IMG/VR virus record: IMGVR_UViG_3300025120_000040
Location: 892 to 64,891 of that record
DNA length: 64,000 nucleotides
Strand: one strand, 5' to 3'
From: a virus
Lineage: Duplodnaviria > Caudoviricetes
This document shows, piece by piece, positions 5,497 through 56,687 of this stretch (position 1 is its first letter; every line of letters begins with the position of its first letter). The position numbers were made by a program, and so were the translations under genes. Under the pieces are notes generated by a model. The model saw nothing but the letters and a program-made list of their open reading frames with translations, was not told where the DNA came from and did no database searches.

Positions 5497-5930
5497 TTAC
5501 TATGTGGTCCTATGTTGCCGTGCTTTTCTAATATATCCTGCTTGATCAAGAACGCCCACATTGTTGCTTCCATGTGTCCCACTTTGAAATCGTAGTGTGT
5601 TGGTTCTACAAACATTTTGTTTGTGTCCTCGAATCTACCTTCTTTGATCGTGTCCATCCATACTGTGTAATCTGCATCAAATTCTGTTCTTGTTTGATCT
5701 GTCGGACAAATAAAATCTGCTATCACGACTCTATTTTTATCAATGGCTTCCTCCGCAAATGACCACATCCTCAACGACTGCCTCTTTCTACCTTCGGGTG
5801 AAAAGTCCCAATCGTCTGCTTCCTTCCTAACTTCATCTGCATTCAACCATACAGCATTGAACATAGGCACCAGTAATTTTGCCAAAGTTGTCTTACCTGA
5901 TCCAGGCAAACCCATTATCAGTATCTTCAT
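5493..5930 (-). CDS. cysC: adenylylsulfate (APS) kinase-like protein, short phage form
   Basis: Walker A GLPGSGKTT, WLNADEVR, DWDFSxEGR, DFICP; only 145 aa. Confidence 0.75.
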   Translation of the reverse strand: MKILIMGLPGSGKTTLAKLLVPMFNAVWLNADEVRKEADDWDFSPEGRKRQSLRMWSFAEEAIDKNRVVIADFICPTDQTRTEFDADYTVWMDTIKEGRFEDTNKMFVEPTHYDFKVGHMEATMWAFLIKQDILEKHGNIGPHSK

Positions 5931-7713: not shown

Positions 7714-8884
7714 ATATCTGTAATACTTTATTTAAAAGTGGAAACATATCACCAAAATTTTCTTTCCTATACTGATCTGTTTGCAATATTCTTCTTTTTC
7801 TTTCTGCACGTATCTCCGGAGAGTCTCTGTCAGCGGCGTTCATGAATCTTATGCTTGGTTGGTAGTCTGTGAGCATGTTATACCTGTCTGTGACTATGTC
7901 CTTTACCTGCCGTGGTAATGTCTGTATGTTGAACACATCAGGATCAAAGCAAGTGTTCACATAAAAGAACTTAGGTTGGAACTGTGCCACCCACAATGCC
8001 ATCTTGGCCCAATTGAACACATTGAATATATTCACTGTTGAACATATTTGAAAGTCCATGTTAGGTGTTTTCATTTCTTTAAACTTAACAAGATTCTGGT
8101 TCACTTCTCTCCACTTTGCAGGATGTCTTTGATACTCGAAAGGTTCTCCCACGTCATCAATGCTGAACGCTACTTCCACGTGCTTGAAACAACTCCATAG
8201 GTCGAATATTTCCTGTGGTGGTAACTGTGTGCCGTTGGTGTTGTAGTGTATGTCTATGTTCTTGGCATATCCCTTCTCGACACAGTGCATCAGTATTTTA
8301 AAGTGGTCCTTGATCATGAACGGTTCGCCGCCTGTGAATTCAAAGTACTCCACATATTTTAGATCCTCCTGCAACTCCTCAAAAAATTGTGGGTTACGTT
8401 TTGGCCACCCGCCTTCTTTCAATTGTTTTCTAGCAACAAGATTATCTCCTCCCTTGGCCGTTTCATAATCTATTTCTTCCTGAGCCCATTTTGATGAACT
8501 CCATGATCCGCATATCCTACATTTTAAATTACACACGTTGCCCAACTTAAAGTCAATAAACTTGAGGGATGGCTCGCTATTAGGTGTCCAGTTTTCTAAA
8601 CTGCTACGCATTTTGTAGATCGAGTTTTGTCTTTTGGATGTTTTGCCAGCGTCTTCCTCCTGCCAACAGCTCTGACAACCTTTAGGACGTTCACCGTTTC
8701 TAAATTTTGTTCTAAGATTGTCCATGTATTCCGTATCTTGTATAGACTTAAGACTTTGTTCGTACACTTTGACACCAGGAATACTGCCCTTGTACAAACA
8801 GCAAGGAGACGCACCACCATTTACATCAACTTCTAAATGATTCCACGGTAATGGGCATATGTTTGAATCTATATACTTGTCCAC
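7706..8884 (-). CDS. radical SAM protein with N-terminal twitch domain
   Basis: CPLPW..PCC..CQSC, CNLKCRIC, GGEPF, YNTNG. Confidence 0.92.
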   Translation of the reverse strand: MDKYIDSNICPLPWNHLEVDVNGGASPCCLYKGSIPGVKVYEQSLKSIQDTEYMDNLRTKFRNGERPKGCQSCWQEEDAGKTSKRQNSIYKMRSSLENWTPNSEPSLKFIDFKLGNVCNLKCRICGSWSSSKWAQEEIDYETAKGGDNLVARKQLKEGGWPKRNPQFFEELQEDLKYVEYFEFTGGEPFMIKDHFKILMHCVEKGYAKNIDIHYNTNGTQLPPQEIFDLWSCFKHVEVAFSIDDVGEPFEYQRHPAKWREVNQNLVKFKEMKTPNMDFQICSTVNIFNVFNWAKMALWVAQFQPKFFYVNTCFDPDVFNIQTLPRQVKDIVTDRYNMLTDYQPSIRFMNAADRDSPEIRAERKRRILQTDQYRKENFGDMFPLLNKVLQIYE

Positions 8885-10152
8885 CAGTCTAACACCCTTT
8901 CATCTCTGCTTAATATTTTGGTTATATCCTGTCTTCTGATCTTGTCAATACTTTCTTGTCTCTGTTTTCCTTGTTTAGTTGGTGTAAAGGTTTCTCTATT
9001 CTTTAAATTTTTTATTACCTCTATTAATGCTCTCTGTTTTCGTGTGGCAAGAGGTTCCATGTATGCCAGTGCTTCATCGATGAGTGTGTGTAGCAGTTCT
9101 TTGGGCAGTGCTAATGGACTTAGAATCTCGTCATTACTAAAAGTAAACATAACTTTTGTTAATATCTCTGTGTCCAACTCTCTGCTTAAATCGAACATGT
9201 TTTTAAGTTCTAGTAAACCCGGCATTGTTATCGTATAGTCTAATCTCATCTCCCTGGCTGTTTTTGCCACTGCCATTCCTTCTTTGAAATTGCGTAACCA
9301 CTGCTCATAGTTTAATCCGTCTCTGATGTACTCGCCAACTTCTCCTGTTCCGTCCAGTGATGAACATATCTGCCAGTCTTGGAACTGTGGCAGTAAGTCA
9401 AACAGTTTAATTCCTTTGAATGATGTTCTACTTAGATTCGTGTTGTATCTCACATACACTTCTTTTGCGAATCCTAATTCTATTATTCTCTGCATGGCTT
9501 TCCAATGCATATCCCACATCAGAGGTTCTCCACCGCACCAGTATATTTCTTTTATTCTTTTTGTTTCTACTGCTTCAACAAACTCTTGTACAACCTGTGT
9601 GTCTTGAAATTTAATGATTTGTTCTCTCAAAGGTGATGCCATCCATGGTTGTGATTCTTTGGTCCATGTTTTGTTCTTCCTAGATTCTGCTTCCCAACTA
9701 CTACTTAACATATCACCGCACATCCTACATTTGAAGTTGCATAGGTTGTTGAATCTATAATCAAAACTGATTGTCTGCATTGTAGTTGCACCTGTTTCAT
9801 CTGTGCTGTCGTACGCTTCATCTACCCTGTCATTAAACAACTGATTCCAGTATGATCTGTATACATCTGTGTTTAACAGTTTGTGATCACACACTTCACA
9901 CTCTGACAGTTCTTCTCCTGCCATCATACGCAGTCTAACAGATTTCATATGCTCTGAATTCCAGTGTTCTTTCAGTGTTAGTGGTTTATATTCTTTAGCG
10001 TCATTGCCTGTGTCAATGTACTGTTTGAAACTTTGTGCAGGTTCTCTAGATGCACAACAAATACGTCTTTCTGTCTGCGGTGACAGATACGTGTGTGTCC
10101 ACGGTGCCATACAGAATGTTTTGTTACCTTCGCTAGGTTTAATTCTCTTCAT
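8869..10152 (-). CDS. radical SAM protein with N-terminal twitch domain
   Basis: CMAPW..ICC..CEVC, CNFKCRMC, GGEPL, YNTN. Confidence 0.92.
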   Translation of the reverse strand: MKRIKPSEGNKTFCMAPWTHTYLSPQTERRICCASREPAQSFKQYIDTGNDAKEYKPLTLKEHWNSEHMKSVRLRMMAGEELSECEVCDHKLLNTDVYRSYWNQLFNDRVDEAYDSTDETGATTMQTISFDYRFNNLCNFKCRMCGDMLSSSWEAESRKNKTWTKESQPWMASPLREQIIKFQDTQVVQEFVEAVETKRIKEIYWCGGEPLMWDMHWKAMQRIIELGFAKEVYVRYNTNLSRTSFKGIKLFDLLPQFQDWQICSSLDGTGEVGEYIRDGLNYEQWLRNFKEGMAVAKTAREMRLDYTITMPGLLELKNMFDLSRELDTEILTKVMFTFSNDEILSPLALPKELLHTLIDEALAYMEPLATRKQRALIEVIKNLKNRETFTPTKQGKQRQESIDKIRRQDITKILSRDERVLDWWTSI

Positions 10153-11422
10153 ACAATTCCTTCAATTCAGGAAATGTTTCAAGGATATTTTCGTCTCTGA
10201 TCACGTCCATCTTTTTCATTGTGTCTTTGAACTGTTGCATGTCTTTGCTGTTGTCTCTTCTCATCATGTAGTCCAACCCAGATTCAAATCCCTTGGTTGC
10301 CCTGGTGAGATTATCTAGAGGACGCAACCATTCTAGGTGTGACTCGATCTTCTCTTTGACTCTTTGTTTGTATGAGTCTGGTAAAAGATCAATCCTCTGT
10401 GCGTATGGATACTGCAATAAGTTGAAGTTGAAATCTTGTGGTTTCAATAATCCTTGATCTACCCAATTCCTGTGGAAGTCTGATATGTGTAATGCATTTA
10501 TAAGTCCAACTGTGCTTGATATGTAGAAGTCTACTTGCGGACAAACTTCTAACATACGTTTCCTGTTTGCTATTACGTCTTTCCACACAGTGCCTTTACG
10601 CATGTATTCTCCCCTGGCACCTTCTGCGTCTAGACTTGCACCTATCGATACTGAATCAAACTTGTTCCATAATTCCAACACGTCAATGTCTTTGTATTTT
10701 GTTCTTGTGAAGTTTGTGTTGTAAATTAATCTCACGTGATACATCTTACGTCTGTCCAATTCTTTTAATATCCTGTAGTGTTCTTCCATGATTATTGGTT
10801 CGCCACCTGCGAAGTAAAACTGTTCCACATGTTCGAACTGTTCCAACATCTGATCCCATATGTCATTACTGCTACGGCCAACTTTCATTATCTTCGCATG
10901 ATTGGGAGGAGAACCTGTAAGTTTTTTGTGATCTTCATACCAATTACTGCTGAACCATGTACCACAACTTCTACACGCTAGGTTACATAGGTTACTGAAT
11001 CTTATATCCCAATACTTTATGACGAAATCTGCTGTGCCATCTTCCTGTGTGTTCTCAACCATACCTATGTTGTGTCCAAAGTGTTTGTTCGAACTTAGAC
11101 GCAGTGAGAAGAACCCCGACTTCTCTTGATCATAACATTTCGTACAATGTTTGCTTGGCTTTGCGGCCAGCATGTTTTTCCTTATACCCTTCATCTCATC
11201 GTTGTTAAAGACTTCTTCCATTGAATTCTTGTTAAGATCACCAACAGGATATTTGTCCAATGCAAAACAACAAGGGTACGCTCTACCGTCAGGGAAAGCA
11301 TGTATGTGCAACCATGGCATCATACAGAATGTGTCATTGTCTATCAACAACTCCTTCTCTTTAGGAGTCATATCTTTGATCTTTAGTTTCTCAGGCTCTT
11401 TGGCGCCATAATCATATGCCAC
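10139..11422 (-). CDS. radical SAM protein with N-terminal twitch domain
   Basis: CMMPW..PCC..CTKC, CNLACRSC, GGEPI, YNTN. Confidence 0.92.
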   Translation of the reverse strand: MAYDYGAKEPEKLKIKDMTPKEKELLIDNDTFCMMPWLHIHAFPDGRAYPCCFALDKYPVGDLNKNSMEEVFNNDEMKGIRKNMLAAKPSKHCTKCYDQEKSGFFSLRLSSNKHFGHNIGMVENTQEDGTADFVIKYWDIRFSNLCNLACRSCGTWFSSNWYEDHKKLTGSPPNHAKIMKVGRSSNDIWDQMLEQFEHVEQFYFAGGEPIIMEEHYRILKELDRRKMYHVRLIYNTNFTRTKYKDIDVLELWNKFDSVSIGASLDAEGARGEYMRKGTVWKDVIANRKRMLEVCPQVDFYISSTVGLINALHISDFHRNWVDQGLLKPQDFNFNLLQYPYAQRIDLLPDSYKQRVKEKIESHLEWLRPLDNLTRATKGFESGLDYMMRRDNSKDMQQFKDTMKKMDVIRDENILETFPELKELYEEN

Positions 11423-12755
11423 TATACCATTCTCCTATTATTGGGAAAGTCTTTTCGAAGTTCTTTCCTGATCTTTTGTCGTATTGACTGTAAAACGCTT
11501 TGAAGTCTTTCTGTAGTTTACTTTGTTCGGCCGCACCTGCATGTGGTGTTTTGACAACATCTAAATAATCTATAAGTCTCTGTGTTTGGTTAGTTTCCAT
11601 ATGTTCTAGATGTTTTTCATTGTTATTTAAAAACTTTACCAAGTCTCCTTTAAATTTATTTCTTAGGTCATCGGGTAGCACAAGAGGTGATTGGAAGCTC
11701 GGGAACCGTAATATGTTCAATGTAAAGTTGACCTTCGGTCCATACACCTTACTTGCACTCTTGAACCATATTATCCTCTCTAGCAGTTCTGGCAACGACT
11801 CTAAACACAGTGCATTTATGGTACACATATTATGAATCTCTGATGGGACTTTATCAACCATCATGTGTAAGAAATTTGAGAACCATTCGCCGTAATCTAA
11901 TCCGTCTCTGATGTATTCGCCTTGTTTGTGTGTTGCTTCCATGCTGGTATACAGATGAAAGTTTTTAAATCCTTTTAGTTTAGTTTTGAATCTATCAATA
12001 ATGCTTTGCTTTGCACCCAGGTTAGAGTTGATTGCAATACGTATATCAGGATTCATTTTTTCACCTTGTGTTTCTATCCAATCTAACAGTCTCCACAAGT
12101 TGGGTGACATCATAGGTTCTCCACCTGTTATCCTCAGTTCATCTAAACTCTTGTGTAGGTCCGTTTCCCACCATTTGTAAAATGCTTCCACGTACGGATT
12201 TGTTTCGTCTTTCTTGTATGGCTCTGCACTTTCATGACTGTGTGTGAAGTGATTACGCCCATCTGTTTTCATATCTGTGTATGGTCCTTGCCTCTTGATA
12301 TTGTTTGCCCACGTAGAACTAAATGCAGGATTACAATATGTACAAGCAAAGTTACAGGTCCTATCGAATGCTATCTCCAGTGTCTTTAGATTGACATCTG
12401 TGTCAGCATCAGTTTTGTGTGCGTAGTCCAATGCTTCGTTTGTGAATATTTTTGATTTGTAGACCCTGTCGCTAATATTATCTCTTTTGATATCTTCTAT
12501 CTTCCAGCAGTATTCACACCCTTTTGGTCTGTCGCCGCACTGCATCTGTTTACGTTCTGCTTTCTTTTGTACTGTGTTGTGTATTGCACTAGGATTTGTT
12601 TTTATTGCTTCAAGATCAATCTTGTGCGGAAGTGGATGGTGACAACTTGTGGTCATACCACTACCCAACCATATTGTTGCATTATACCATTTGGCTCCGC
12701 AGAAACTTGCTGACTTAGGATCCAGTATTTGTTTTTTATATTCTAAATCGTTCAT
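11412..12755 (-). CDS. radical SAM protein with N-terminal twitch domain
   Basis: CGAKW..SCHHP..CEYCW, CNFACTYC, TGGEPMM. Confidence 0.92.
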   Translation of the reverse strand: MNDLEYKKQILDPKSASFCGAKWYNATIWLGSGMTTSCHHPLPHKIDLEAIKTNPSAIHNTVQKKAERKQMQCGDRPKGCEYCWKIEDIKRDNISDRVYKSKIFTNEALDYAHKTDADTDVNLKTLEIAFDRTCNFACTYCNPAFSSTWANNIKRQGPYTDMKTDGRNHFTHSHESAEPYKKDETNPYVEAFYKWWETDLHKSLDELRITGGEPMMSPNLWRLLDWIETQGEKMNPDIRIAINSNLGAKQSIIDRFKTKLKGFKNFHLYTSMEATHKQGEYIRDGLDYGEWFSNFLHMMVDKVPSEIHNMCTINALCLESLPELLERIIWFKSASKVYGPKVNFTLNILRFPSFQSPLVLPDDLRNKFKGDLVKFLNNNEKHLEHMETNQTQRLIDYLDVVKTPHAGAAEQSKLQKDFKAFYSQYDKRSGKNFEKTFPIIGEWYSGI

Positions 12756-14122
12756 GCGTTTTTACACTCCTCCCAGAATTCTTCCATCTCAGGGAAAGTG
12801 TTCAATAAGTTTGTTTGTCTTCTCCGATCGTGTTCGTTAAAAAATGCGTAAAAATTCTTTTTTTGTTGCGTACTTACGTCCGTGTTTTCTCGCCAGTATG
12901 CGAGATTGCGTTGCATTTTTTGAATCTCGAAGTCCTTGAATATGTGTAACCCGTTGTCCTCCCCGGAATGGTTCTGCATGTACTTAATGTTATCCTCATG
13001 TATGCTCTGGTACGCCTCCGGTAGCATCGTGATCTGTTGCCATGCGGGTTGCCTCAGCAGTGGCACATCGAACCACACTCTCTGGTAGGTCTTTGAGTAC
13101 TTGGTACGCAGTTCCAATATTTTCTCCAGCAGTTTATCCATGCTCGTGATACTTAGATTGTTGTATGTGCATATGAATGTGATGGAATTACGACCCGGGA
13201 TCCTGTCAAGAAACTCCTCCACGTTGTCCATCATGTAGTTGAAATCCAGGCCGTCACGTATGTACTCCGCACGTTTGCCAAATGCGTCAACTGACACGAA
13301 CTGCATCATGTGTTCAACCTTCTCCTGCATACATATCTCCTGTGCCATGTTGAAGTACTTCTCTTTCAACTTCTTGTCTGGTGGACACATGTTACTGGTC
13401 ACGTTGAGGTGCAGATCTTGTTTGGGATGATCTATTATGTACTGGAAAACCTTGTAGGTGTTCACGTCCATCATGGGTTCACCACCGGTCATACGGAAGT
13501 GCTTTAAATTCTTGTACAGTGTTGGCCACCACTTCCAGAAAGCGGTCACGTAAGGGTTCTCCTCCCTGTTGGGTATGGGCTTCCTGCGACCTTGGAAGTG
13601 CTCTGGTGCGTTGTGGGAAGGGGTGGTAGGATATTCGCCGTATCTGTCCACCTCCTTGGCCCACGTGGTCGAGAACTGTGGTGAACAATAACTGCACTTG
13701 AAGTTACAAGCGTTGTTGAAGTTCACCTCCACGTATCTCGGCGTCCAATGTTCGTCTATTGGATTCTTTCTAATATCCTCGAAGTCCTGCATGGCCCATG
13801 GCTCACCAGACCTGTAGTGCCTGTCTGACATCTCCCCGGTCTTCTCCATGTTCCAGCAGTATGAACAACCCTCGGGTTGTTCTCCCTGGAGCATCTGTTG
13901 TCGTTGATTCATTTTCTCTGCGGTGTTGTGCAGTGCGGCTGGATTGTTTTTCAACTTCTCTGCATCAATGTTGTGCAATGGTGGATGATAGCAACTGTTG
14001 GTCAGTCCCGTGGGCAGGTGCAGTGAGGTCTGATTCCACTTGGCCAGGCACATGGTAGGAGAAACTGTCTCGAGTATTTCCTTGGCCTTCAATGCGTCCT
14101 GTTTGTAGTTACTGGTACTCAC
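12752..14122 (-). CDS. radical SAM protein with N-terminal twitch domain
   Basis: CLAKW..SCYHP..CSYCW, CNFKCSYC, TGGEPMM. Confidence 0.92.
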   Translation of the reverse strand: MSTSNYKQDALKAKEILETVSPTMCLAKWNQTSLHLPTGLTNSCYHPPLHNIDAEKLKNNPAALHNTAEKMNQRQQMLQGEQPEGCSYCWNMEKTGEMSDRHYRSGEPWAMQDFEDIRKNPIDEHWTPRYVEVNFNNACNFKCSYCSPQFSTTWAKEVDRYGEYPTTPSHNAPEHFQGRRKPIPNREENPYVTAFWKWWPTLYKNLKHFRMTGGEPMMDVNTYKVFQYIIDHPKQDLHLNVTSNMCPPDKKLKEKYFNMAQEICMQEKVEHMMQFVSVDAFGKRAEYIRDGLDFNYMMDNVEEFLDRIPGRNSITFICTYNNLSITSMDKLLEKILELRTKYSKTYQRVWFDVPLLRQPAWQQITMLPEAYQSIHEDNIKYMQNHSGEDNGLHIFKDFEIQKMQRNLAYWRENTDVSTQQKKNFYAFFNEHDRRRQTNLLNTFPEMEEFWEECKNA

Positions 14123-15005
14123 GGTCTTGCACTCCCTTGTTTATGTGCGGAGGGATGACGAACCGATAGAACCTGCTGTCATCGTCATCGTACTCCGCAA
14201 TTGGCATGTCCAGTTGTTGCCTCAGGCTGTTACCGTACATCAACAGATCTGTGTCTATGTCTGTAGGTGACTGATCCTTGTAGTACAACTCCATGTTATC
14301 CAGATCACGTATCTTGAAATGCTCATTTTTGGCCTCTATCACTGTGTTGAAACAACCCATCCTCGCTCCCAACATGGCGTACTTGCCAAACTCTACGTCT
14401 GCACCCACTGTACACCAAGTGCTGAGTGTCCTCAGATTAGTCGGCCACACTTTTTGGAAATCATTGGCAGGTATGGGTTTGCCTTTGTTCGTACTCATTT
14501 TTACACCCTCCCTGAAGCCTGCCACAAAGGCCTGCTGTTCAGAACCATTTATTATGGTAGTGGAGTAACAGTTATGCAGATTCTCATGTGGCACACCCCA
14601 GCAGAAATCTATCTGGTTCTCCTCCGAGTCAGCATTCTCGTGTGTCCTCATGTTCAAGCACGTTTCCTTTGACCAACCAACTAGTCCTCCATTACCGTAC
14701 ACTAGCCCATTAATGTTATTTTTTGCTCGCCAACGATGAACTGCCTTGGGATCGGTCTTCGTCCAATCTAGGGTTTGTAATAAAAAAGTTTCATCAATAA
14801 CGTTGTCACCGTCAACACTTATAAAGAAGTCGGTCTCTGCCAACTCGGCCGCGGCCTTATGGGCGTTGTCAAACCCCACAACACCATCAACACGCTTGGC
14901 CCATGGCACCTTGTTCTTGAGATCCGCCCAATTCTCTTCCTTGTTGGGCTCCTTGAAACTGATGTACACGAAGTCCAGTTCGCTTATTCTCGTTCTATCA
15001 GCCAT
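14109..15005 (-). CDS. glycosyltransferase-like protein (GT-A fold)
   Basis: DFVYISFKEP...AKRVDGVVG...FISVDGDN (DxD motif), LVYGNGG. Confidence 0.7.
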   Translation of the reverse strand: MADRTRISELDFVYISFKEPNKEENWADLKNKVPWAKRVDGVVGFDNAHKAAAELAETDFFISVDGDNVIDETFLLQTLDWTKTDPKAVHRWRAKNNINGLVYGNGGLVGWSKETCLNMRTHENADSEENQIDFCWGVPHENLHNCYSTTIINGSEQQAFVAGFREGVKMSTNKGKPIPANDFQKVWPTNLRTLSTWCTVGADVEFGKYAMLGARMGCFNTVIEAKNEHFKIRDLDNMELYYKDQSPTDIDTDLLMYGNSLRQQLDMPIAEYDDDDSRFYRFVIPPHINKGVQDREYQ

Positions 15006-49582: not shown

Positions 49583-51344
49583 AGAACTAACAGTAAAGAA
49601 CTTCATGAGTGTGGGCAACCAGGCCCAAGCAATTAACTTCGCCGACAAGAGCCTTGTGCTTGTGATCGGTGAGAACATGGATCTAGGTGGCGACGATGCA
49701 GGTGCTAGGAACGGCACAGGAAAGACCACAATCATTAATGCATTGAGTTACGTGTTCTTTGGAGAAGCTCTGACAAACATCAGGAGGGATAATCTAGTAA
49801 ACAAGACCAATGAGAAAGGCATGCTAGTTGGTGTTAAGTTTGTGAAAAATGGAATTACCTATACAATCGAGAGAGGGCGTAAGCCACAGATATTTAGATT
49901 CTATGCTAACGACATAGAACAAAAAACGGAAAGCAACGAAGCACAAGGTGAGAACAGAGAAACACAAGTAGAAATAAACAAGTTGATGGGCATGACACAC
50001 TCCATGTTCAAGAACATAATTGCGTTGAACACTTACACACAACCGTTCCTGTCGACGAAACAGGCAGAGCAGAGAGAGATAATCGAGCAGTTGCTTGGTA
50101 TAACACTACTTTCACAAAAAGCAGATCTGTTAAAGGAAAAACAGAAAGCAACAAAACAGATGCTTACTGAAGAAAAATTAAAAATAGATGCTAGGGTTGC
50201 CAGTAATGAAAAGATACAGGAGTCCATAGAAAGCCTACAGATAAGATCAAATGCTTGGGACAAACAGAAGCAGGAGGACATAAAAAGTTTCCAGGAAGCA
50301 ATCGCAGAATTAGAGAAAGTGGACAGTGAGATAGAGATAGCCAAACACAAAAAATTACAGAAACATACTGAGATGCAAACTGCGTTAAGAAGTCTGCAGA
50401 AAGAGAAAGCATATCATGAAGATTCGCTAACCAAAGCAGAAAGTACAGTAACTAAGACCGAAGCAGACTTGGAATACACTAAACAACAAAAATGTCCCAC
50501 ATGTGAACAATCACTGCACGATGACAAGCACGAACTCTTGGTTGGAAAACTAAAAACACAACTTACAGAATCAACAGAATACGTGACAAAATTACAAAGT
50601 GACCTTGCAAAAATACAAGGGGGCATAGATGAGATCGGTGACCTTGGACAGATTCCAGACACGTATTATGATACCATAGACGAAGCGTACAATCACAAAG
50701 GTTCGTTGCAGGATCTAAAAAGACAGTTAGATCAAACTGAGAAAAAAGCAGACACATATGCTGAACAGATATCGGAGATGAAGAAATCTGCAATACAAAA
50801 ATTAGATTATGAGAAAGCAAACGAGCTAGAAGATCTGCACAGGCACCAGGACTTCTTATACAAACTGTTAACAGCAAAAGATTCATTCATAAGAACAAGA
50901 ATCATAGAACAGAATCTAACATATCTGAATCAAAGACTAGCATACTTCCTGGGCAAAGTAAAACTGCCACACACAGTCACCTTCCAATCAGACCTAACTG
51001 TGCGTATTGAGGAACTGGGCAGGGAACTGGATTTTGACAACTTGAGCAGGGGAGAAAGAAACAGGCTGATCCTAAGTTTAAGTTGGGCATTCAGAGATGT
51101 GTGGGAGAGCCTTTATCAACAGATCAACTTGTTGTTTATAGACGAACTCGTGGACGCTGGTATGGACATATCGGGTGTTGAAAGTTCTATGGCAGTGTTG
51201 AAGGACATGAGCAGGACACAGAAGAAGAATATTTTCTTAATATCCCACAAGGACGAACTGGTAAGTAGAGTAAATTCAGTATTAAAAGTTGTAAAAGAAA
51301 ATGGATTCACAAATTATGCTAACGACGTGGACATTATAGTGTAG
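49569..51344 (+). CDS. gp46: recombination ATPase subunit (Rad50/SbcC-like)
   Basis: TTG start; KNFMSVGN, NGTGKTT, CPTC zinc hook, LSRGE, LFIDE, ISH. Confidence 0.93.
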   Translation: MLTIKELTVKNFMSVGNQAQAINFADKSLVLVIGENMDLGGDDAGARNGTGKTTIINALSYVFFGEALTNIRRDNLVNKTNEKGMLVGVKFVKNGITYTIERGRKPQIFRFYANDIEQKTESNEAQGENRETQVEINKLMGMTHSMFKNIIALNTYTQPFLSTKQAEQREIIEQLLGITLLSQKADLLKEKQKATKQMLTEEKLKIDARVASNEKIQESIESLQIRSNAWDKQKQEDIKSFQEAIAELEKVDSEIEIAKHKKLQKHTEMQTALRSLQKEKAYHEDSLTKAESTVTKTEADLEYTKQQKCPTCEQSLHDDKHELLVGKLKTQLTESTEYVTKLQSDLAKIQGGIDEIGDLGQIPDTYYDTIDEAYNHKGSLQDLKRQLDQTEKKADTYAEQISEMKKSAIQKLDYEKANELEDLHRHQDFLYKLLTAKDSFIRTRIIEQNLTYLNQRLAYFLGKVKLPHTVTFQSDLTVRIEELGRELDFDNLSRGERNRLILSLSWAFRDVWESLYQQINLLFIDELVDAGMDISGVESSMAVLKDMSRTQKKNIFLISHKDELVSRVNSVLKVVKENGFTNYANDVDIIV

Positions 51345-51346
51345 AC

Positions 51347-52423
51347 ATGTTTTGCACACAACCGTTCAATCATATAGATGTTATTGTAGAAAACAGCAAA
51401 GTGATGTTGCAACCATGTAACGTTTGGGGCTCAAAAAAATTCAGCATAGAAGAATACAAAAATAGCATATCTCAATTAAAAGATACCATGGCAAGTTCCT
51501 ACCATTATCCAGGATGTAGGATCTGCTGGGCTGAAGATAAAAAAAATATCCGATCCAGACGTGTGGCACAGAACCAATTCTCAGAGGATAACGAGTTATC
51601 AACACAAAAACTACAAAGTCTAGGTGTGAGATATGGTACCTTGTGTAACAGCAAGTGCATGATTTGTAGTCATACTAGATCTTCGTCCTGGGTACCAGAT
51701 GCAGAAAAATTAGGGATCAAAATAGAAGAACAGTACAAGTACAAAAAAAACTTACTGCCCGGGGTTGATATTTTCTTTGATAATTTTGATCTAGATGATT
51801 TGAGATATGTGGAATTCCACGGCGGTGAACCGTTGATGCAAAGTTATCCTGCTGATTTCCTAAAGAAGATAAAAAAATTAGATCAGTTAATTGTGAAATT
51901 CAACACTAACCTGACTGTGCTACCGTCGAACGACTTAAATGCATTATTGAAGAAATGTAAAAGAGTAGATTTCTTGTTAAGCGTTGACGACATAGGAGAG
52001 CGTTATGAGATGTTGCGATATCCGGGTAAATGGGATATATTTGTAAAGAACATGGAAATAATAAAAAAACAAAATTATAGAACAATGGCGTACAATGCAC
52101 TATCGTCATTGAACATTTTTTATGCCGTAGAGTTTTACAAATGGGCAACGAAAAACTTTGGCACTGAGGTGCATTCTCAGTTTGTAGTTGACCAGGAACA
52201 CTTAGATATAAGTTATCTCCCGCAACAAGCCAAAAACATAGTATTAGAAAAAATAAAAAATTATAAAGGTAAAATATTTGATTCGATAAGGCAACAGTTG
52301 AACATACAAAAAGAAGACCGTAAAGAGGAATTATTAAAGTACATCAAAGATCTAGATCGTATTAGAAAAACAAACTACCCGGTCACTTTCAAGGAATGGT
52401 ACACAATATTAAACAAAAGATAG
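51347..52423 (+). CDS. radical SAM protein with N-terminal twitch domain
   Basis: CTQPF..PC..CRICW, CNSKCMIC, GGEPL, FNTN. Confidence 0.88.
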   Translation: MFCTQPFNHIDVIVENSKVMLQPCNVWGSKKFSIEEYKNSISQLKDTMASSYHYPGCRICWAEDKKNIRSRRVAQNQFSEDNELSTQKLQSLGVRYGTLCNSKCMICSHTRSSSWVPDAEKLGIKIEEQYKYKKNLLPGVDIFFDNFDLDDLRYVEFHGGEPLMQSYPADFLKKIKKLDQLIVKFNTNLTVLPSNDLNALLKKCKRVDFLLSVDDIGERYEMLRYPGKWDIFVKNMEIIKKQNYRTMAYNALSSLNIFYAVEFYKWATKNFGTEVHSQFVVDQEHLDISYLPQQAKNIVLEKIKNYKGKIFDSIRQQLNIQKEDRKEELLKYIKDLDRIRKTNYPVTFKEWYTILNKR

Positions 52424-53901: not shown

Positions 53902-54096
53902 ATGTCAAATGAAACACATGATGCTATCATGACAGCAATTCAAACTTACTCAGAAGAGAATGGTAAGTTCGTTGATAAGGGCGTGAAAGCCTCTGCAACA
54001 AGAGCCAGAAAGGCCCTAGCAGAATTATCTAAACTGATCAAAGCAAGAAGAAAAGAGATCCAAGAAGTTAAGAATGCGGCTAAAACAGCGGCGTAA
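53902..54096 (+). CDS. histone H1-like (Hc1-type) small basic protein
   Basis: KF.DKGVKASATRARKALAELSKLIKARRKEIQE; strong AGGAG RBS and its own terminator. Confidence 0.75.
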   Translation: MSNETHDAIMTAIQTYSEENGKFVDKGVKASATRARKALAELSKLIKARRKEIQEVKNAAKTAA

Positions 54097-54118: not shown

Positions 54119-54153
54119 AAAACCCTCGGCTTTTACGAGTCGGGGGTTTTTTT
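54119..54153 (+). terminator. rho-independent terminator, probably bidirectional
   Basis: AAAACCCTCGGCT-TTTACG-AGTCGGGGGTTTT hairpin followed by a T-run, between convergent genes. Confidence 0.85.
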
Positions 54154-55186
54154 ATAAGAGAGAAAAAAGCTCGGGCAGATGATCTGCAAATTTCAATTTA
54201 CTAAACCTATCTTGTCTTTCTAAATTATCCATCATCTTTACCGACGATGACGAGGTCCCTCTCCACTCTACCGTTTTCTTTTTAAAGAACATAGGATTAT
54301 TTTTTTCAACCTCTGTCCCGACATGTTTAGCAAGATTATCGTAAGCAAACTCCGGAGGGTAAGTTACTAGATTCAGTTCTACCTTACGGGGGAGGAGTTT
54401 AAAAAGATTAAGCACGATATCATCGATGTAAAATACGTTCAAGTTGCTAATCGTAACGTATGTCGATAAATGGTCAATTCCAAAATTTTTAATGTACTGT
54501 TTGATATTGTCTCGTACCTGATTCCATTTTGCTGGTTGTCGTATGTATTCAAATATTTTTCCATATCCATCAAGAGAGAAACATATGTTAAACTTTTTAA
54601 AACTAGATAGCAACTCTATCTGCTTCTGTGTCAGTTCCACTGTTCCATTTGTTTGTAAGGAGAATGATTTATCCTTGTCCAGTATCGATAGGTAATTCCA
54701 TAGTGATGCAGACTTTAGTGTTTCTCCGCCTATAAACTCTATGTGCTTAATTTTGTGTATATCTTGTACATCAGACGCTTTAATATCTGTTATTACTTTC
54801 ATGTCTTTGAATTTCTCGGCTCTAACTTGTGACAGATCAAAATACACATTTTGATATTTCTTCAGCCATGACGTGCTTACCATTGGATTACATGTCACGC
54901 AGTAAAGATTACACACATTACCAACAGGTATCACTGCCGTACTTACTGACCGTTCCGTCTGTGCTAGATTTTCTTTATATGTTTCGTTGGCTATTTGTCT
55001 TTTTGACTTTATCCCCAATGCCTCTGTTTTCCAACAGCCGTTGCAGAACCTACTTTGGCGATTGTTTCTGTGGTCATCTAATAATTGATCTGTGTCCCTG
55101 TCTGCTTTGAAATCACCTAAAATACAACAAGGCGCATCAAACTGGTAGTCTTGATTTATAAATGGTAGTACACACTTATTCCCCAT
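54152..55186 (-). CDS. radical SAM protein with N-terminal twitch domain
   Basis: CVLPF..PCC..CNGCW, CNLYCVTC, GGET, QTNG. Confidence 0.88.
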   Translation of the reverse strand: MGNKCVLPFINQDYQFDAPCCILGDFKADRDTDQLLDDHRNNRQSRFCNGCWKTEALGIKSKRQIANETYKENLAQTERSVSTAVIPVGNVCNLYCVTCNPMVSTSWLKKYQNVYFDLSQVRAEKFKDMKVITDIKASDVQDIHKIKHIEFIGGETLKSASLWNYLSILDKDKSFSLQTNGTVELTQKQIELLSSFKKFNICFSLDGYGKIFEYIRQPAKWNQVRDNIKQYIKNFGIDHLSTYVTISNLNVFYIDDIVLNLFKLLPRKVELNLVTYPPEFAYDNLAKHVGTEVEKNNPMFFKKKTVEWRGTSSSSVKMMDNLERQDRFSKLKFADHLPELFSLL

Positions 55187-55589
55187 TTTTTAATATCCCT
55201 TTTCCATGCACACGCACACGGATGTGTCCATTGTAGTATTCGTTGGTCTCTAAAACCTTACGTGAAAATTGTTCACGTGCCTCCACGTAGGACAATTCCG
55301 ATTTGGACTTGCAGTAGAAAAGTATCTCTCTTGCGAACTTGTCTTTACCAATTTTGTTGACATCGATCGTGAGGTCATCACTGGATCCATAGTAGTCCTG
55401 CCAGTCAGAGTCCACTTTGTACCTACGCTTGTTCTTTCTGCCTTTGAGGGGTGGTCTGGATCTTTTGAATCTCGCAAGTTTCTTGCCTATGTACATCCTG
55501 CCGTTGGTTGTATTCGTTATGAGATACACGAATCCGACTATGTCTTCTGGAATGTTGGTAATTTCTTTTCCTTGGTACGTCCAATGCAT
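55176..55589 (-). CDS. small GIY-YIG endonuclease, 137 aa
   Basis: GFVYLITN..NGRMYIGKK...YYGSS...REIL...E...YYN. Start taken at 55589 (MHWTYQG); the track's extension to 55868 overlaps the structured element. Confidence 0.85.
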   Translation of the reverse strand: MHWTYQGKEITNIPEDIVGFVYLITNTTNGRMYIGKKLARFKRSRPPLKGRKNKRRYKVDSDWQDYYGSSDDLTIDVNKIGKDKFAREILFYCKSKSELSYVEAREQFSRKVLETNEYYNGHIRVRVHGKGILKNGE

Positions 55590-55612
55590 GATGGTATTTA
55601 AAGCCAAAAAGA

Positions 55613-55641
55613 TTGACTCTAAATTAAAACTCATATAAACA
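55613..55641 (+). promoter_or_regulatory. candidate promoter for the structured RNA
   Basis: TTGACT at 55613-55618 followed by TATAAACA at 55634-55641 (sigma70-like, or a one-mismatch late promoter). Confidence 0.45.
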
Positions 55642-55643
55642 AG

Positions 55644-56075
55644 TGCGATAGGCAAACAAAAATTTCTTAAAAATTTCCAACAGGCAAACATAGCATCGCA
55701 ACCAGTGAGCAAGGAAATGCGGCTAACAAGCGACAGGTGAATCCTTAGATGCACACAGCAAAAAATGATGGGGCTCTTAGAAAAAGTTAATCCCCAGGTC
55801 GACCAAGAACTATTATACAAGGGTTTGGTGGACTCGCGTTGTAATGAATGAGCAAATGGGTACAGCACAACCGCCCAACTCCGGTAGCGATGTATAGTGA
55901 CTGCGAACTCACCACAGGGTTCAAGTCGGTTCGGCTAGAAATAGCCGAATTGTGACTGCTCATCTACCACAGGGCACGCAATATGCGTGTACCGTTAATT
56001 TTTACTTTGCGTAAGCGTAAATTGAGAAAACGAAACGAGCGTAAGCGAAGTTTCAGATGGCGTAAGCCGTCTCTG
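55644..56075 (+). ncRNA. candidate large structured non-coding RNA (~430 nt), family unknown
   Basis: More than 10 helices including long-range pairs (55726-33/55834-42, 55848-54/55957-63); GAAA and GUAA tetraloops; G-U pairs that favour the + strand; no credible ORF. Confidence 0.65.
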
Positions 56076-56083
56076 ACAATCAA

Positions 56084-56404
56084 CTATTCGTTGTCTTCTG
56101 GCTTTTCTGATGTGTCGGATTGTTCTATTGTGGAATCGTCATGTATGCCACGGATTTTTTGCAGTGCTTCCTCTAGCAGTTTGTCCTTGGTCTCCAACCT
56201 GGCCTTCAGCTCTGCTATCACCTTGTTCTGATCACCTATCTTGTGTCCCAGACTCTGCACGTCTGCCGTGGAGTGTTCCAGTTTGATCAGAACCTGCTTG
56301 TTCCGACTATCCTTGGATTTCATTTTCTCCAAGGCATCATCACGGTCTTTTGTGATTTCTACGATTGCTGATTTGAGTTCTTTGACTAGGTCTTTTTCGG
56401 ACAT
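56084..56404 (-). CDS. coiled-coil hypothetical protein
   Basis: 106-aa ORF with a heptad pattern. Confidence 0.7.
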   Translation of the reverse strand: MSEKDLVKELKSAIVEITKDRDDALEKMKSKDSRNKQVLIKLEHSTADVQSLGHKIGDQNKVIAELKARLETKDKLLEEALQKIRGIHDDSTIEQSDTSEKPEDNE

Positions 56405-56456
56405 ATGTAAGTGTTAATTATCTGCATTTTGGAATACCATTATAGTATACTATATC

Positions 56457-56687
56457 TTAGAAGAAAGGTTGACCGCTTTTTTTAGTAGTTTCCATGTTCT
56501 CTTTTACCAGTTGTGCTACCACACCACGTTCCTCCGGCGAAAGATTAAGTGCTTCCTGCCAGGTGATGCCGCCACGCATGAACCAACACACTTTCATTGT
56601 TTCGAGTTTGAGATTCTTGACTTCGTTGTCGAAGTCCTTTAGGTAGGAAACAATTTCAGAGTTCCCCTTTGTCAGTAGCGTTACCCG
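56457..56687 (-). CDS. -1 frame extension of the gp26-like gene (gp51/GT-like tail assembly chaperone)
   Basis: Open frame RVTLLTKGNSEIVSYLKDFDNEVKNLKLETMKVCWFMRGGITWQEALNLSPEER...PFF; internal ATG at 56597; missing from the ORF track. Confidence 0.7.
   Translation of the reverse strand, partial: RVTLLTKGNSEIVSYLKDFDNEVKNLKLETMKVCWFMRGGITWQEALNLSPEERGVVAQLVKENMETTKKSGQPFF

Follow-up and report, generated by a model that had tools for sequence, protein, structure and literature searches.

The window analysed here is a stretch of 64,000 nucleotides from a viral record of 64.9 kb with a CheckV completeness of 18%. Its source is a T4-like giant myovirus, and the nearest cultured relatives by baseplate-hub protein are the jumbo phages Atu_ph07, PA5oct and Phosso, at approximately 31% identity. 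Between a GIY-YIG nuclease gene with its ATG at 55589 and a 106-aa coiled-coil gene with its stop at 56084, both on the − strand, lies a gap of 494 bases (55590-56083) that contains no conserved open reading frame. A protein-coding reading of this gap was rejected, as the in-frame open length varies between 3 and 125 codons (median 15) across 61 relatives. In the window, the − strand has 92 open codons ahead of the GIY-YIG start; this follows from the A-richness of the + strand, which removes − strand stop codons. Comparative analysis of homologues shows that the gap holds a predicted stand-alone gene, on the + strand, for a structured non-coding RNA of approximately 435 nt (Table 1). At least seven radical-SAM paralogues were also noted within the 64 kb (7727-13879, 51347-52423 and 54152-55186), and one of these shares 11 nt with the stop end of the GIY-YIG gene.

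Immediately upstream of the RNA is a conserved block with TTGACT and an A/T-rich box; no other element of this kind in the window precedes a conserved feature. Strict scans of 55300-56500 returned 0 sigma-70 promoters and 0 intrinsic terminators; the block is therefore called promoter-like only. The last hairpin, P10, is the probable end of the RNA; it has no U-tract in the window, and U-runs follow it in some relatives.

Table 1. Coordinates of the RNA, its parts and neighbouring genes (window positions unless a locus is named)
Feature	Position	Strand	Description
Hc1-like gene	53902-54096	+	64 aa, histone H1-like; PF07432, 6e-12
GIY-YIG nuclease gene	55176-55589	−	137 aa, catalytic domain only; Pfam SegE_GIY-YIG, 5.8e-36, positions 1-123 of 123; outside the RNA
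Promoter-like block	55594-55641	+	TTGACT 55613-18, A/T-rich box 55634-41; nearly invariant in alignment A1
Structured RNA body	55641-56075	+	~435 nt, both ends predicted; conservation profile, homologues, covariation, G-U/A-C counts
Variable 5' leader with AGGCAAAC repeats	55650-55689	+	copies 55650-57 and 55682-89
P1 enclosing P2 and a variable apical hairpin	55693-55752	+	P1 55693-97/55748-52; P2 55711-15/55742-46
P3 hairpin	55769-55796	+	55769-73/55792-96; 55777-78/55789-90
P4 hairpin	55797-55834	+	13 pairs; loop 55812-19 serves as 5' strand of pseudoknot PK1
PK2	55838-55871	+	55838-42/55867-71, 5 bp, within the invariant 11-nt P5 loop
Three-way junction	55850-55890	+	55852-53/55887-88 plus tandem G-A/A-G 55850-51/55889-90; encloses P5 and P6
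P5, P6	P5 55857-61/55873-77; P6 55878-79/55884-85	+	inside the three-way junction
PK1 3' strand	55891-55898	+	pairs with 55812-19, 8 bp; found by mutual information
P7 hairpin, twin-motif copy 1	55905-55922	+	prefix ACUC 55907-10; hexamer ACCACA 55911-16
P8 hairpin	55928-55951	+	10 bp, GAAA cap; between both motif copies
Twin-motif copy 2	55962-55971	+	prefix AUCU 55962-65; hexamer ACCACA 55966-71
Variable linker	55975-56031	+	indel-rich, column identity 0.55-0.64; hairpins 55974-90 and 56001-21 in the window
P9, P10 3' hairpins	56032-56072	+	P9 56032-54, apex GCGUAAGC plus flanking G-A pairs; P10 56055-72
256-aa transferase gene (example in a relative)	L019:4735-5502	− of locus	directly 3' of the RNA

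Homologues, strand and covariation

Relatives were gathered through the two flanking proteins, which yielded 69 viral loci, and through a conserved 19-nt pattern, which yielded at least 120 more stretches. The RNA region was present in 44 of the 69 loci found via the flanking proteins, and when all 189 fetched viral loci were searched with an nhmmer profile, 121 proved to contain a homologue (95 distinct sequences, among the matches listed). Of the 120 motif matches listed for prokaryote genomes, nhmmer identified none as a homologue. Homologues are 70-97% identical, which is higher than the identity of the flanking proteins, and column identity in the core (0.84-0.97) exceeds that of neighbouring coding DNA.

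The predicted folding energy of the + strand is -136.2 kcal/mol (z -3.68), a value that none of 100 shuffles reached; for the − strand, z is -1.60 and nine of 100 shuffles fold at least as well. There are 234 G-U cells to 11 A-C cells in the curated alignment A1 and 487 to 48 in a 66-sequence set, and this excess identifies the RNA strand as +. An RNA on the − strand was ruled out by its fold z-score and by these counts.

RNAalifold on 30 sequences returned 81 pairs, 28 of them compensated, and a mutual-information scan of 66 sequences ranked the known hairpins at the top and revealed long-range pairs. Two models were then evaluated: a curated model of 82 pairs on A1, and a model of 42 pairs, both pseudoknots included, on A2, a core alignment of 64 sequences. 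In the A1 model, 98.4% of cells were paired, compared with 91.1% in shuffles, and 35 of the 82 pairs were compensated, compared with 18.5 ± 2.2 in shuffled alignments (0 of 500 shuffles as high) and 5-9 in slid controls. In the A2 core, 28 of 42 pairs were compensated against 20.2 ± 1.5 after shuffling, and the covariation score was 0.495 versus 0.218, with slid controls reaching at most 0.127.

Known families were searched with the 4227 models of Rfam 15. The whole window gave 0 matches at gathering score, 55100-56500 at E ≤ 10 gave only three chance-level matches of 14-18 bits, and six homologous loci at E ≤ 1 gave nothing on the RNA. ARAGORN found 0 tRNA or tmRNA genes in the window and 0 in 60 related loci, and a tRNA or tmRNA identity was rejected on these counts. 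A group I intron was likewise rejected, both flanking genes being on the − strand and the RNA on the + strand, with no intron model matching at E ≤ 10. Membership of ROOL or GOLLD was rejected by covariance model, with no match even at E ≤ 10, as was a HEARO or omega RNA, for which no model matched and for which the neighbour is not of IscB/TnpB type but a GIY-YIG domain protein that is missing in Atu_ph07. BLAST of the RNA against 50,697 phage records, cultured phages included, returned no match, and the same search with the Atu_ph07 sequence as query found only itself. No paper on such an RNA was found in the article text searched; a mention in paper supplements may exist. Together with the homologues, these searches show an RNA family that has no Rfam match and is conserved across a lineage of giant myoviruses.

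A first-pass annotation, made from the letters of the window, had described the gap as non-coding and as an undescribed large RNA, folded with G-U pairs on the + strand, not recognised as tRNA, tmRNA or a group I/II intron and possibly a ribozyme, a scaffold or a replication primer/origin RNA; it had proposed covariation analysis, metatranscriptome coverage and an Rfam search as checks. The gap exists between the borders given above and is non-coding, and the G-U to A-C counts confirm the strand. The exclusions hold by Rfam and ARAGORN, and the overall reading is supported by strong covariation, by the lack of a family at gathering score and by contigs of marine RNA libraries in which the sequence recurs.

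Architecture of the RNA and its twin motif

The covariation models show a predicted fold of four parts: a 5' domain (P1-P2), a pseudoknotted core (P3-P6), a twin-motif module arranged round P8, and the 3' hairpins. In the 5' domain, P1 is paired in 64-66 of 66 sequences and three of the five P2 pairs are compensated. The variable leader that precedes P1 carries two AGGCAAAC repeats in the window and 2-4 copies of AGGCA in relatives. Seven copies of the AGGCAAAC octamer are present in the window, where 1.99 would be expected and none of 100 shuffles reached that number; the octamer may serve as a binding or regulatory word at other places in the genome. Its other copies are at 5904, 47823, 49211 and 57801 on the + strand and at 14477 on the − strand, so that six of seven lie on the + strand.

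Compensation in A2 is found throughout the core: in P3 for four of seven pairs, in P4 for 11 of 13, and in PK1 for six of eight, with 99% of PK1 cells paired. PK2 has three of five pairs compensated, including 3-base swaps in L058 and L059 and 2-base swaps in L176. Within the three-way junction, pair 55853:55887 is C-G in 57 sequences and U-A in nine, with no exceptions; in P5, pair 55857:55877 is C-G in 44 and U-A in 22, and both P6 pairs are compensated. A further long-range helix, 55836-39/55976-79, was rejected: it shows no covariation and overlaps PK2.

In the twin-motif module, all P8 cells (100%) are paired and four of ten P8 pairs are compensated in A1. The P7 stem pairs are kept in 51-62 of 66 sequences; none of the six is compensated on A1, and compensation was seen by eye in a divergent clade. 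A 3-bp mini-stem closing the second motif copy is possible in 38 of 66 sequences. Downstream of the variable linker, P9 is 99-100% paired and two of the seven P10 pairs are compensated (A1). The word GCGTAAGC occurs four times in the window against 0.45 expected; the fourth copy lies outside the RNA, at 49877-49884 (+).

A 26-nt direct repeat in this module holds the two copies of one short motif, in the P7 loop and 3' of P8. The copies are identical to each other over 6-10 nt in 66 of 66 sequences, which together present nine variants. On a tree built with the motif columns masked, the motif switched at least 12 times, where the minimum possible is eight, and three variants arose more than once. 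To our knowledge, such strict parallel switching of two identical motifs is an unusual evolutionary signature. Six copy-specific nucleotides separate the shared GUGACUGC from each motif, which makes gene conversion an unlikely cause of the identity. No complement of the motif was found inside the RNA, and in the 3.5 kb on either side no position offered one consistently, the best serving three of nine variants; ACCACAGG is not enriched in the window (4 versus 2.5 expected). In the marine clade, all nine variants read as a pyrimidine-ending triplet followed by a purine; the motifs of distant clades do not fit this rule.

The helices proposed by the first-pass annotation fared unevenly. Seven of its 13 are kept across 66 homologues, six of them with compensation (the seven being 55769-96, 55798-833, 55857-77, 55905-22, the core 55928-51 of 55924-57, 56032-54 and 56055-72). 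Two more, 55974-90 and 56001-21, are present in the window but belong to the indel-rich linker, where they are paired in 16-53 and 3-49 of 66 sequences per position, respectively. The remaining four lack support. TGCGAT/ATCGCA pairs in 34-60 of 66 sequences per position, and a better-kept helix, 55693-97/55748-52, competes with it; hairpin 55737-54 clashes with P1 and P2. For ACAAGCGA/TCGCGTTGT, the first four pairs form in 42-55 of 66 sequences and the 3' arm clashes with PK2; its last four pairs were counted in 1-12 of 66, but in an ungapped register that is one base off the proposed one, as the proposed 3' arm has one extra base. For ATGAGCA/TGCTCAT, complementarity extends to 41-66 of 66 sequences, uncompensated changes occur, and 55852-53/55887-88 is a competing helix. 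In place of the two long-range helices that had been taken to close multi-way junctions, we find PK1 and PK2; neither the pseudoknots nor the twin motif figured in that annotation. The four GNRA loops are present by sequence, and the upstream promoter-like element stands as a conserved block with TTGACT but not as a strict sigma-70 site.

Neighbouring genes, distant relatives and RNA libraries

Of 76 assessable loci, 62 have the GIY-YIG gene as an immediate neighbour of the RNA, and a further 13 have it no more than 3.5 kb away. The orientation of this gene varies, being co-oriented rather than divergent in L322, L130, L106 and L179, and no homologue was found in Atu_ph07. The 137-aa product is similar in size to T4 endonuclease II. 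In distant relatives, the GIY-YIG domain sits inside open frames of 368-369 aa, and the marine form may thus be a shortened, domesticated nuclease.

In 43 of 59 assessable loci, the next gene past the 3' end of the RNA is a co-oriented one of 256 aa. Its protein has no match in Pfam or PHROG. The NCBIfam arginyltransferase model matched four of 14 members at E ≤ 1 (best 1.5e-08), the matches being to divergent members, and the best value across related arginyltransferase models was 3.4e-14. The predicted fold (pLDDT 81.4) has human ATE1 as its top Foldseek match (E 2e-6), followed by FemX and MprF; by homology and structure prediction, the protein is a putative aminoacyl-tRNA-dependent transferase of the ATE1/Bpt/FemX-like kind. 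The gene is absent from the window, from the 64.9-kb record to which the window belongs, from a complete 323-kb relative and from Atu_ph07. In 16 of the 59 loci, the window included, there is no co-oriented gene directly downstream of the RNA; in the window, the 3' end of the RNA faces the end of a convergent gene. The Hc1-like gene is syntenic with the RNA in most clades, even where the hub protein is only 33-37% identical; in the complete 323-kb record, however, the two lie far apart, and in Atu_ph07 no such gene was found. An obligate link to the transferase, the GIY-YIG or the Hc1-like gene was rejected, because each is missing or distant in some genomes that carry the RNA.

Distant relatives were sought with a covariance model of the core covering 135 positions. 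The window scored 154.9 bits, five divergent marine loci 43-50 bits, L322 (a 178-kb contig) 38.3 bits, L323 and L324 34 bits, and L328, the complete 323-kb record, 25.6 bits. In Atu_ph07 (NC_042013.1), positions 490095-490267 (−) scored 24 bits (E 3.3e-4 per genome, a rough calibration) in an unannotated stretch. P3 is kept in Atu_ph07, L322, L323 and L328. By eye, Atu_ph07 also keeps P4, the P5 loop with PK2, and P6, and its PK1 has eight of eight pairs formed by different bases and is thus fully compensated; PK1 has 8 bp in L323 and is formed with one bulge in L322. Atu_ph07, L322 and L323 each have an identical motif pair of their own, with prefixes (A)CUC and (A)UCU and flanking a long hairpin, and Atu_ph07 and L323 have a downstream hairpin with a GCGUAAGC apex. 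The weak scores of Atu_ph07, L322 and L323 were accepted because of these features (PK1, twin motifs and hairpins), and the Agrobacterium phage Atu_ph07 probably carries a member of the family. Also in Atu_ph07, a sub-threshold match to the thermometer-like ROSE_3 (L317:171-235, −; 28 bits where the gathering score is 43; E 0.02) overlaps the 5' end and first codons of an Hsp20 gene.

PA5oct gave a core-model match of 17.9 bits at 13120-13286, inside a 911-nt unannotated gap (12810-13720; L318:1311-2221). This match has only P3- and P4-like hairpins, without the P5 loop or the PK1 complement, and is treated as unconfirmed. The four ncRNAs published for PA5oct, abundant transcripts free of ORFs, do not overlap 13120-13286 (PMC7318152). 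They resemble the present RNA in coming from a related giant phage and in having no known function, but they share no sequence similarity with it, and no conserved structure is known to have been published for them. The core-model search of Phosso and XbC2 gave no match, a result that is little informative.

The stretch is contained in 20 listed sequencing runs, which come from 13 studies (seawater, marine and salt-marsh samples) and of which ten are recorded as RNA. In four marine RNA-library runs (four studies), contigs, which may contain DNA, cover pieces of 55694-56079. Some RNA-library contigs continue from the 3' end of the RNA into the start of a relative's transferase gene (loose ends 56078-56081; X1, X3 and X4). 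These runs hint at transcription; they are kept as contigs, which give no strand, ends or level.

Candidate roles and significance

Our leading interpretation, held tentatively and with slightly less than an even chance of being right, is that the RNA is an independent, trans-acting scaffold that has its own promoter-like element and shows one motif twice to an outside reader. The RNA would be made from this element and act in trans; judging from its anatomy, the rigid pseudoknotted core would present the same single-stranded motif twice, to a reader that may be either a dimeric protein or an RNA in two copies. If the reader differs between phage lineages, both motif copies would have to switch together. 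Trans action is suggested because the RNA is kept in the 16 loci without a downstream co-oriented gene, because the complete 323-kb record and Atu_ph07 have no transferase, and because Atu_ph07 is also without the GIY-YIG and Hc1-like neighbours. Whether the motifs might pair with two copies of one RNA, most attractively the anticodon loops of one tRNA, is a narrower proposal that we consider quite doubtful: the triplet-plus-purine rule in the nine marine variants and the recurrence of variants support it, and the distant-clade motifs that break the rule, together with the missing transferase in complete genomes that bear the RNA, count against it. If true, this would be a trans-acting phage tRNA-binding RNA with a switchable 'specifier' present twice, and it may feed, sense or protect tRNA for the transferase, or shield tRNA from host nucleases.

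The RNA could instead be a cis-acting leader, riboswitch-like or tRNA-sensing, that controls the downstream transferase gene. The gene's position in 43 of 59 loci, the ATE1/Bpt/FemX-like nature predicted by NCBIfam and Foldseek, the missing U-tract after P10 and the contigs bridging the RNA and the transferase start, which fit read-through as well as a leader role, all agree with this. T-box leaders offer a parallel, since this RNA lies in most relatives directly upstream of a gene that uses aminoacyl-tRNA and has short variable single-stranded motifs that switch among a small recurring set. We nevertheless hold a leader to be unlikely: an RNA of the same fold is kept at the 16 loci where no such gene follows and in the record and genomes where no transferase was found, and no Rfam T-box or riboswitch model matches. 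Moreover, and unlike in a T-box, the motif is in a hairpin loop and present twice, and in distant clades it breaks the codon-plus-purine rule. A ribozyme is a further candidate, and a slightly less likely one; here the double-pseudoknot core would be catalytic, possibly cutting or joining at the twin motifs and so releasing or circularising the P8 segment. The compact core with two pseudoknots, the invariant 11-nt loop and the many invariant junction bases would suit a ribozyme as well as a scaffold, and two identical sites with fixed 4-nt prefixes stand on either side of a hairpin. Against catalysis, the RNA has no internal guide complementary to the variable motif and matches no known ribozyme model, and no contig joint skips the 55-nt segment, although contigs drop rare forms. 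T4-like group I introns with GIY-YIG genes also place a structured RNA beside such a gene in a T4-like myovirus, but in the window the nuclease is encoded outside the RNA and on the other strand, the RNA strand carries no exons, and the RNA has its own promoter-like element, another pseudoknot topology and no intron model match.

We consider it improbable that the RNA forms a homo-oligomeric assembly of RNA only, with twin motifs and GNRA loops as contacts between copies. Like ROOL and GOLLD, it is a large, ornate, multi-helix RNA conserved in phages, with several conserved GNRA loops, no known function and no obligatory partner gene. Many GOLLD and ROOL loci have tRNA genes nearby, whereas this RNA has none in the window or the 60 related loci; it is also smaller, has a double-pseudoknot core and a twin motif, and matches neither model. 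ROOL and GOLLD have been shown by cryo-EM to be homo-oligomeric assemblies (PMC12286853). In the present RNA, identical motifs cannot pair together, six of the nine variants are not self-complementary, and the RNA contains no complementary site. Least probable is an element acting at the DNA level, either a target or homing site of the GIY-YIG nuclease, with motif switches reflecting an arms race over the cleavage site, or a replication origin. Free-standing homing endonuclease genes typically adjoin conserved targets, as the T4 seg genes do, and 75 of the 76 assessable loci have the GIY-YIG gene next to the RNA or no more than 3.5 kb away, whichever way it is oriented. Such an element would leave the compensated pairs of A1, the two compensated pseudoknots and the G-U excess on one strand unexplained, and Atu_ph07 has the RNA with no GIY-YIG homologue.

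Large, intricately folded RNAs of unknown family are rare finds, and RNase P, OLE, GOLLD and ROOL each opened a field. Many marine giant phages carry the RNA described here, marine RNA libraries contain it, and its fold is well determined, with two pseudoknots. The parallel switching of its twin motifs suggests that the RNA has a specific partner within experimental reach. With a probable relative in the cultured phage Atu_ph07, which grows on Agrobacterium C58, the RNA is testable at the bench.
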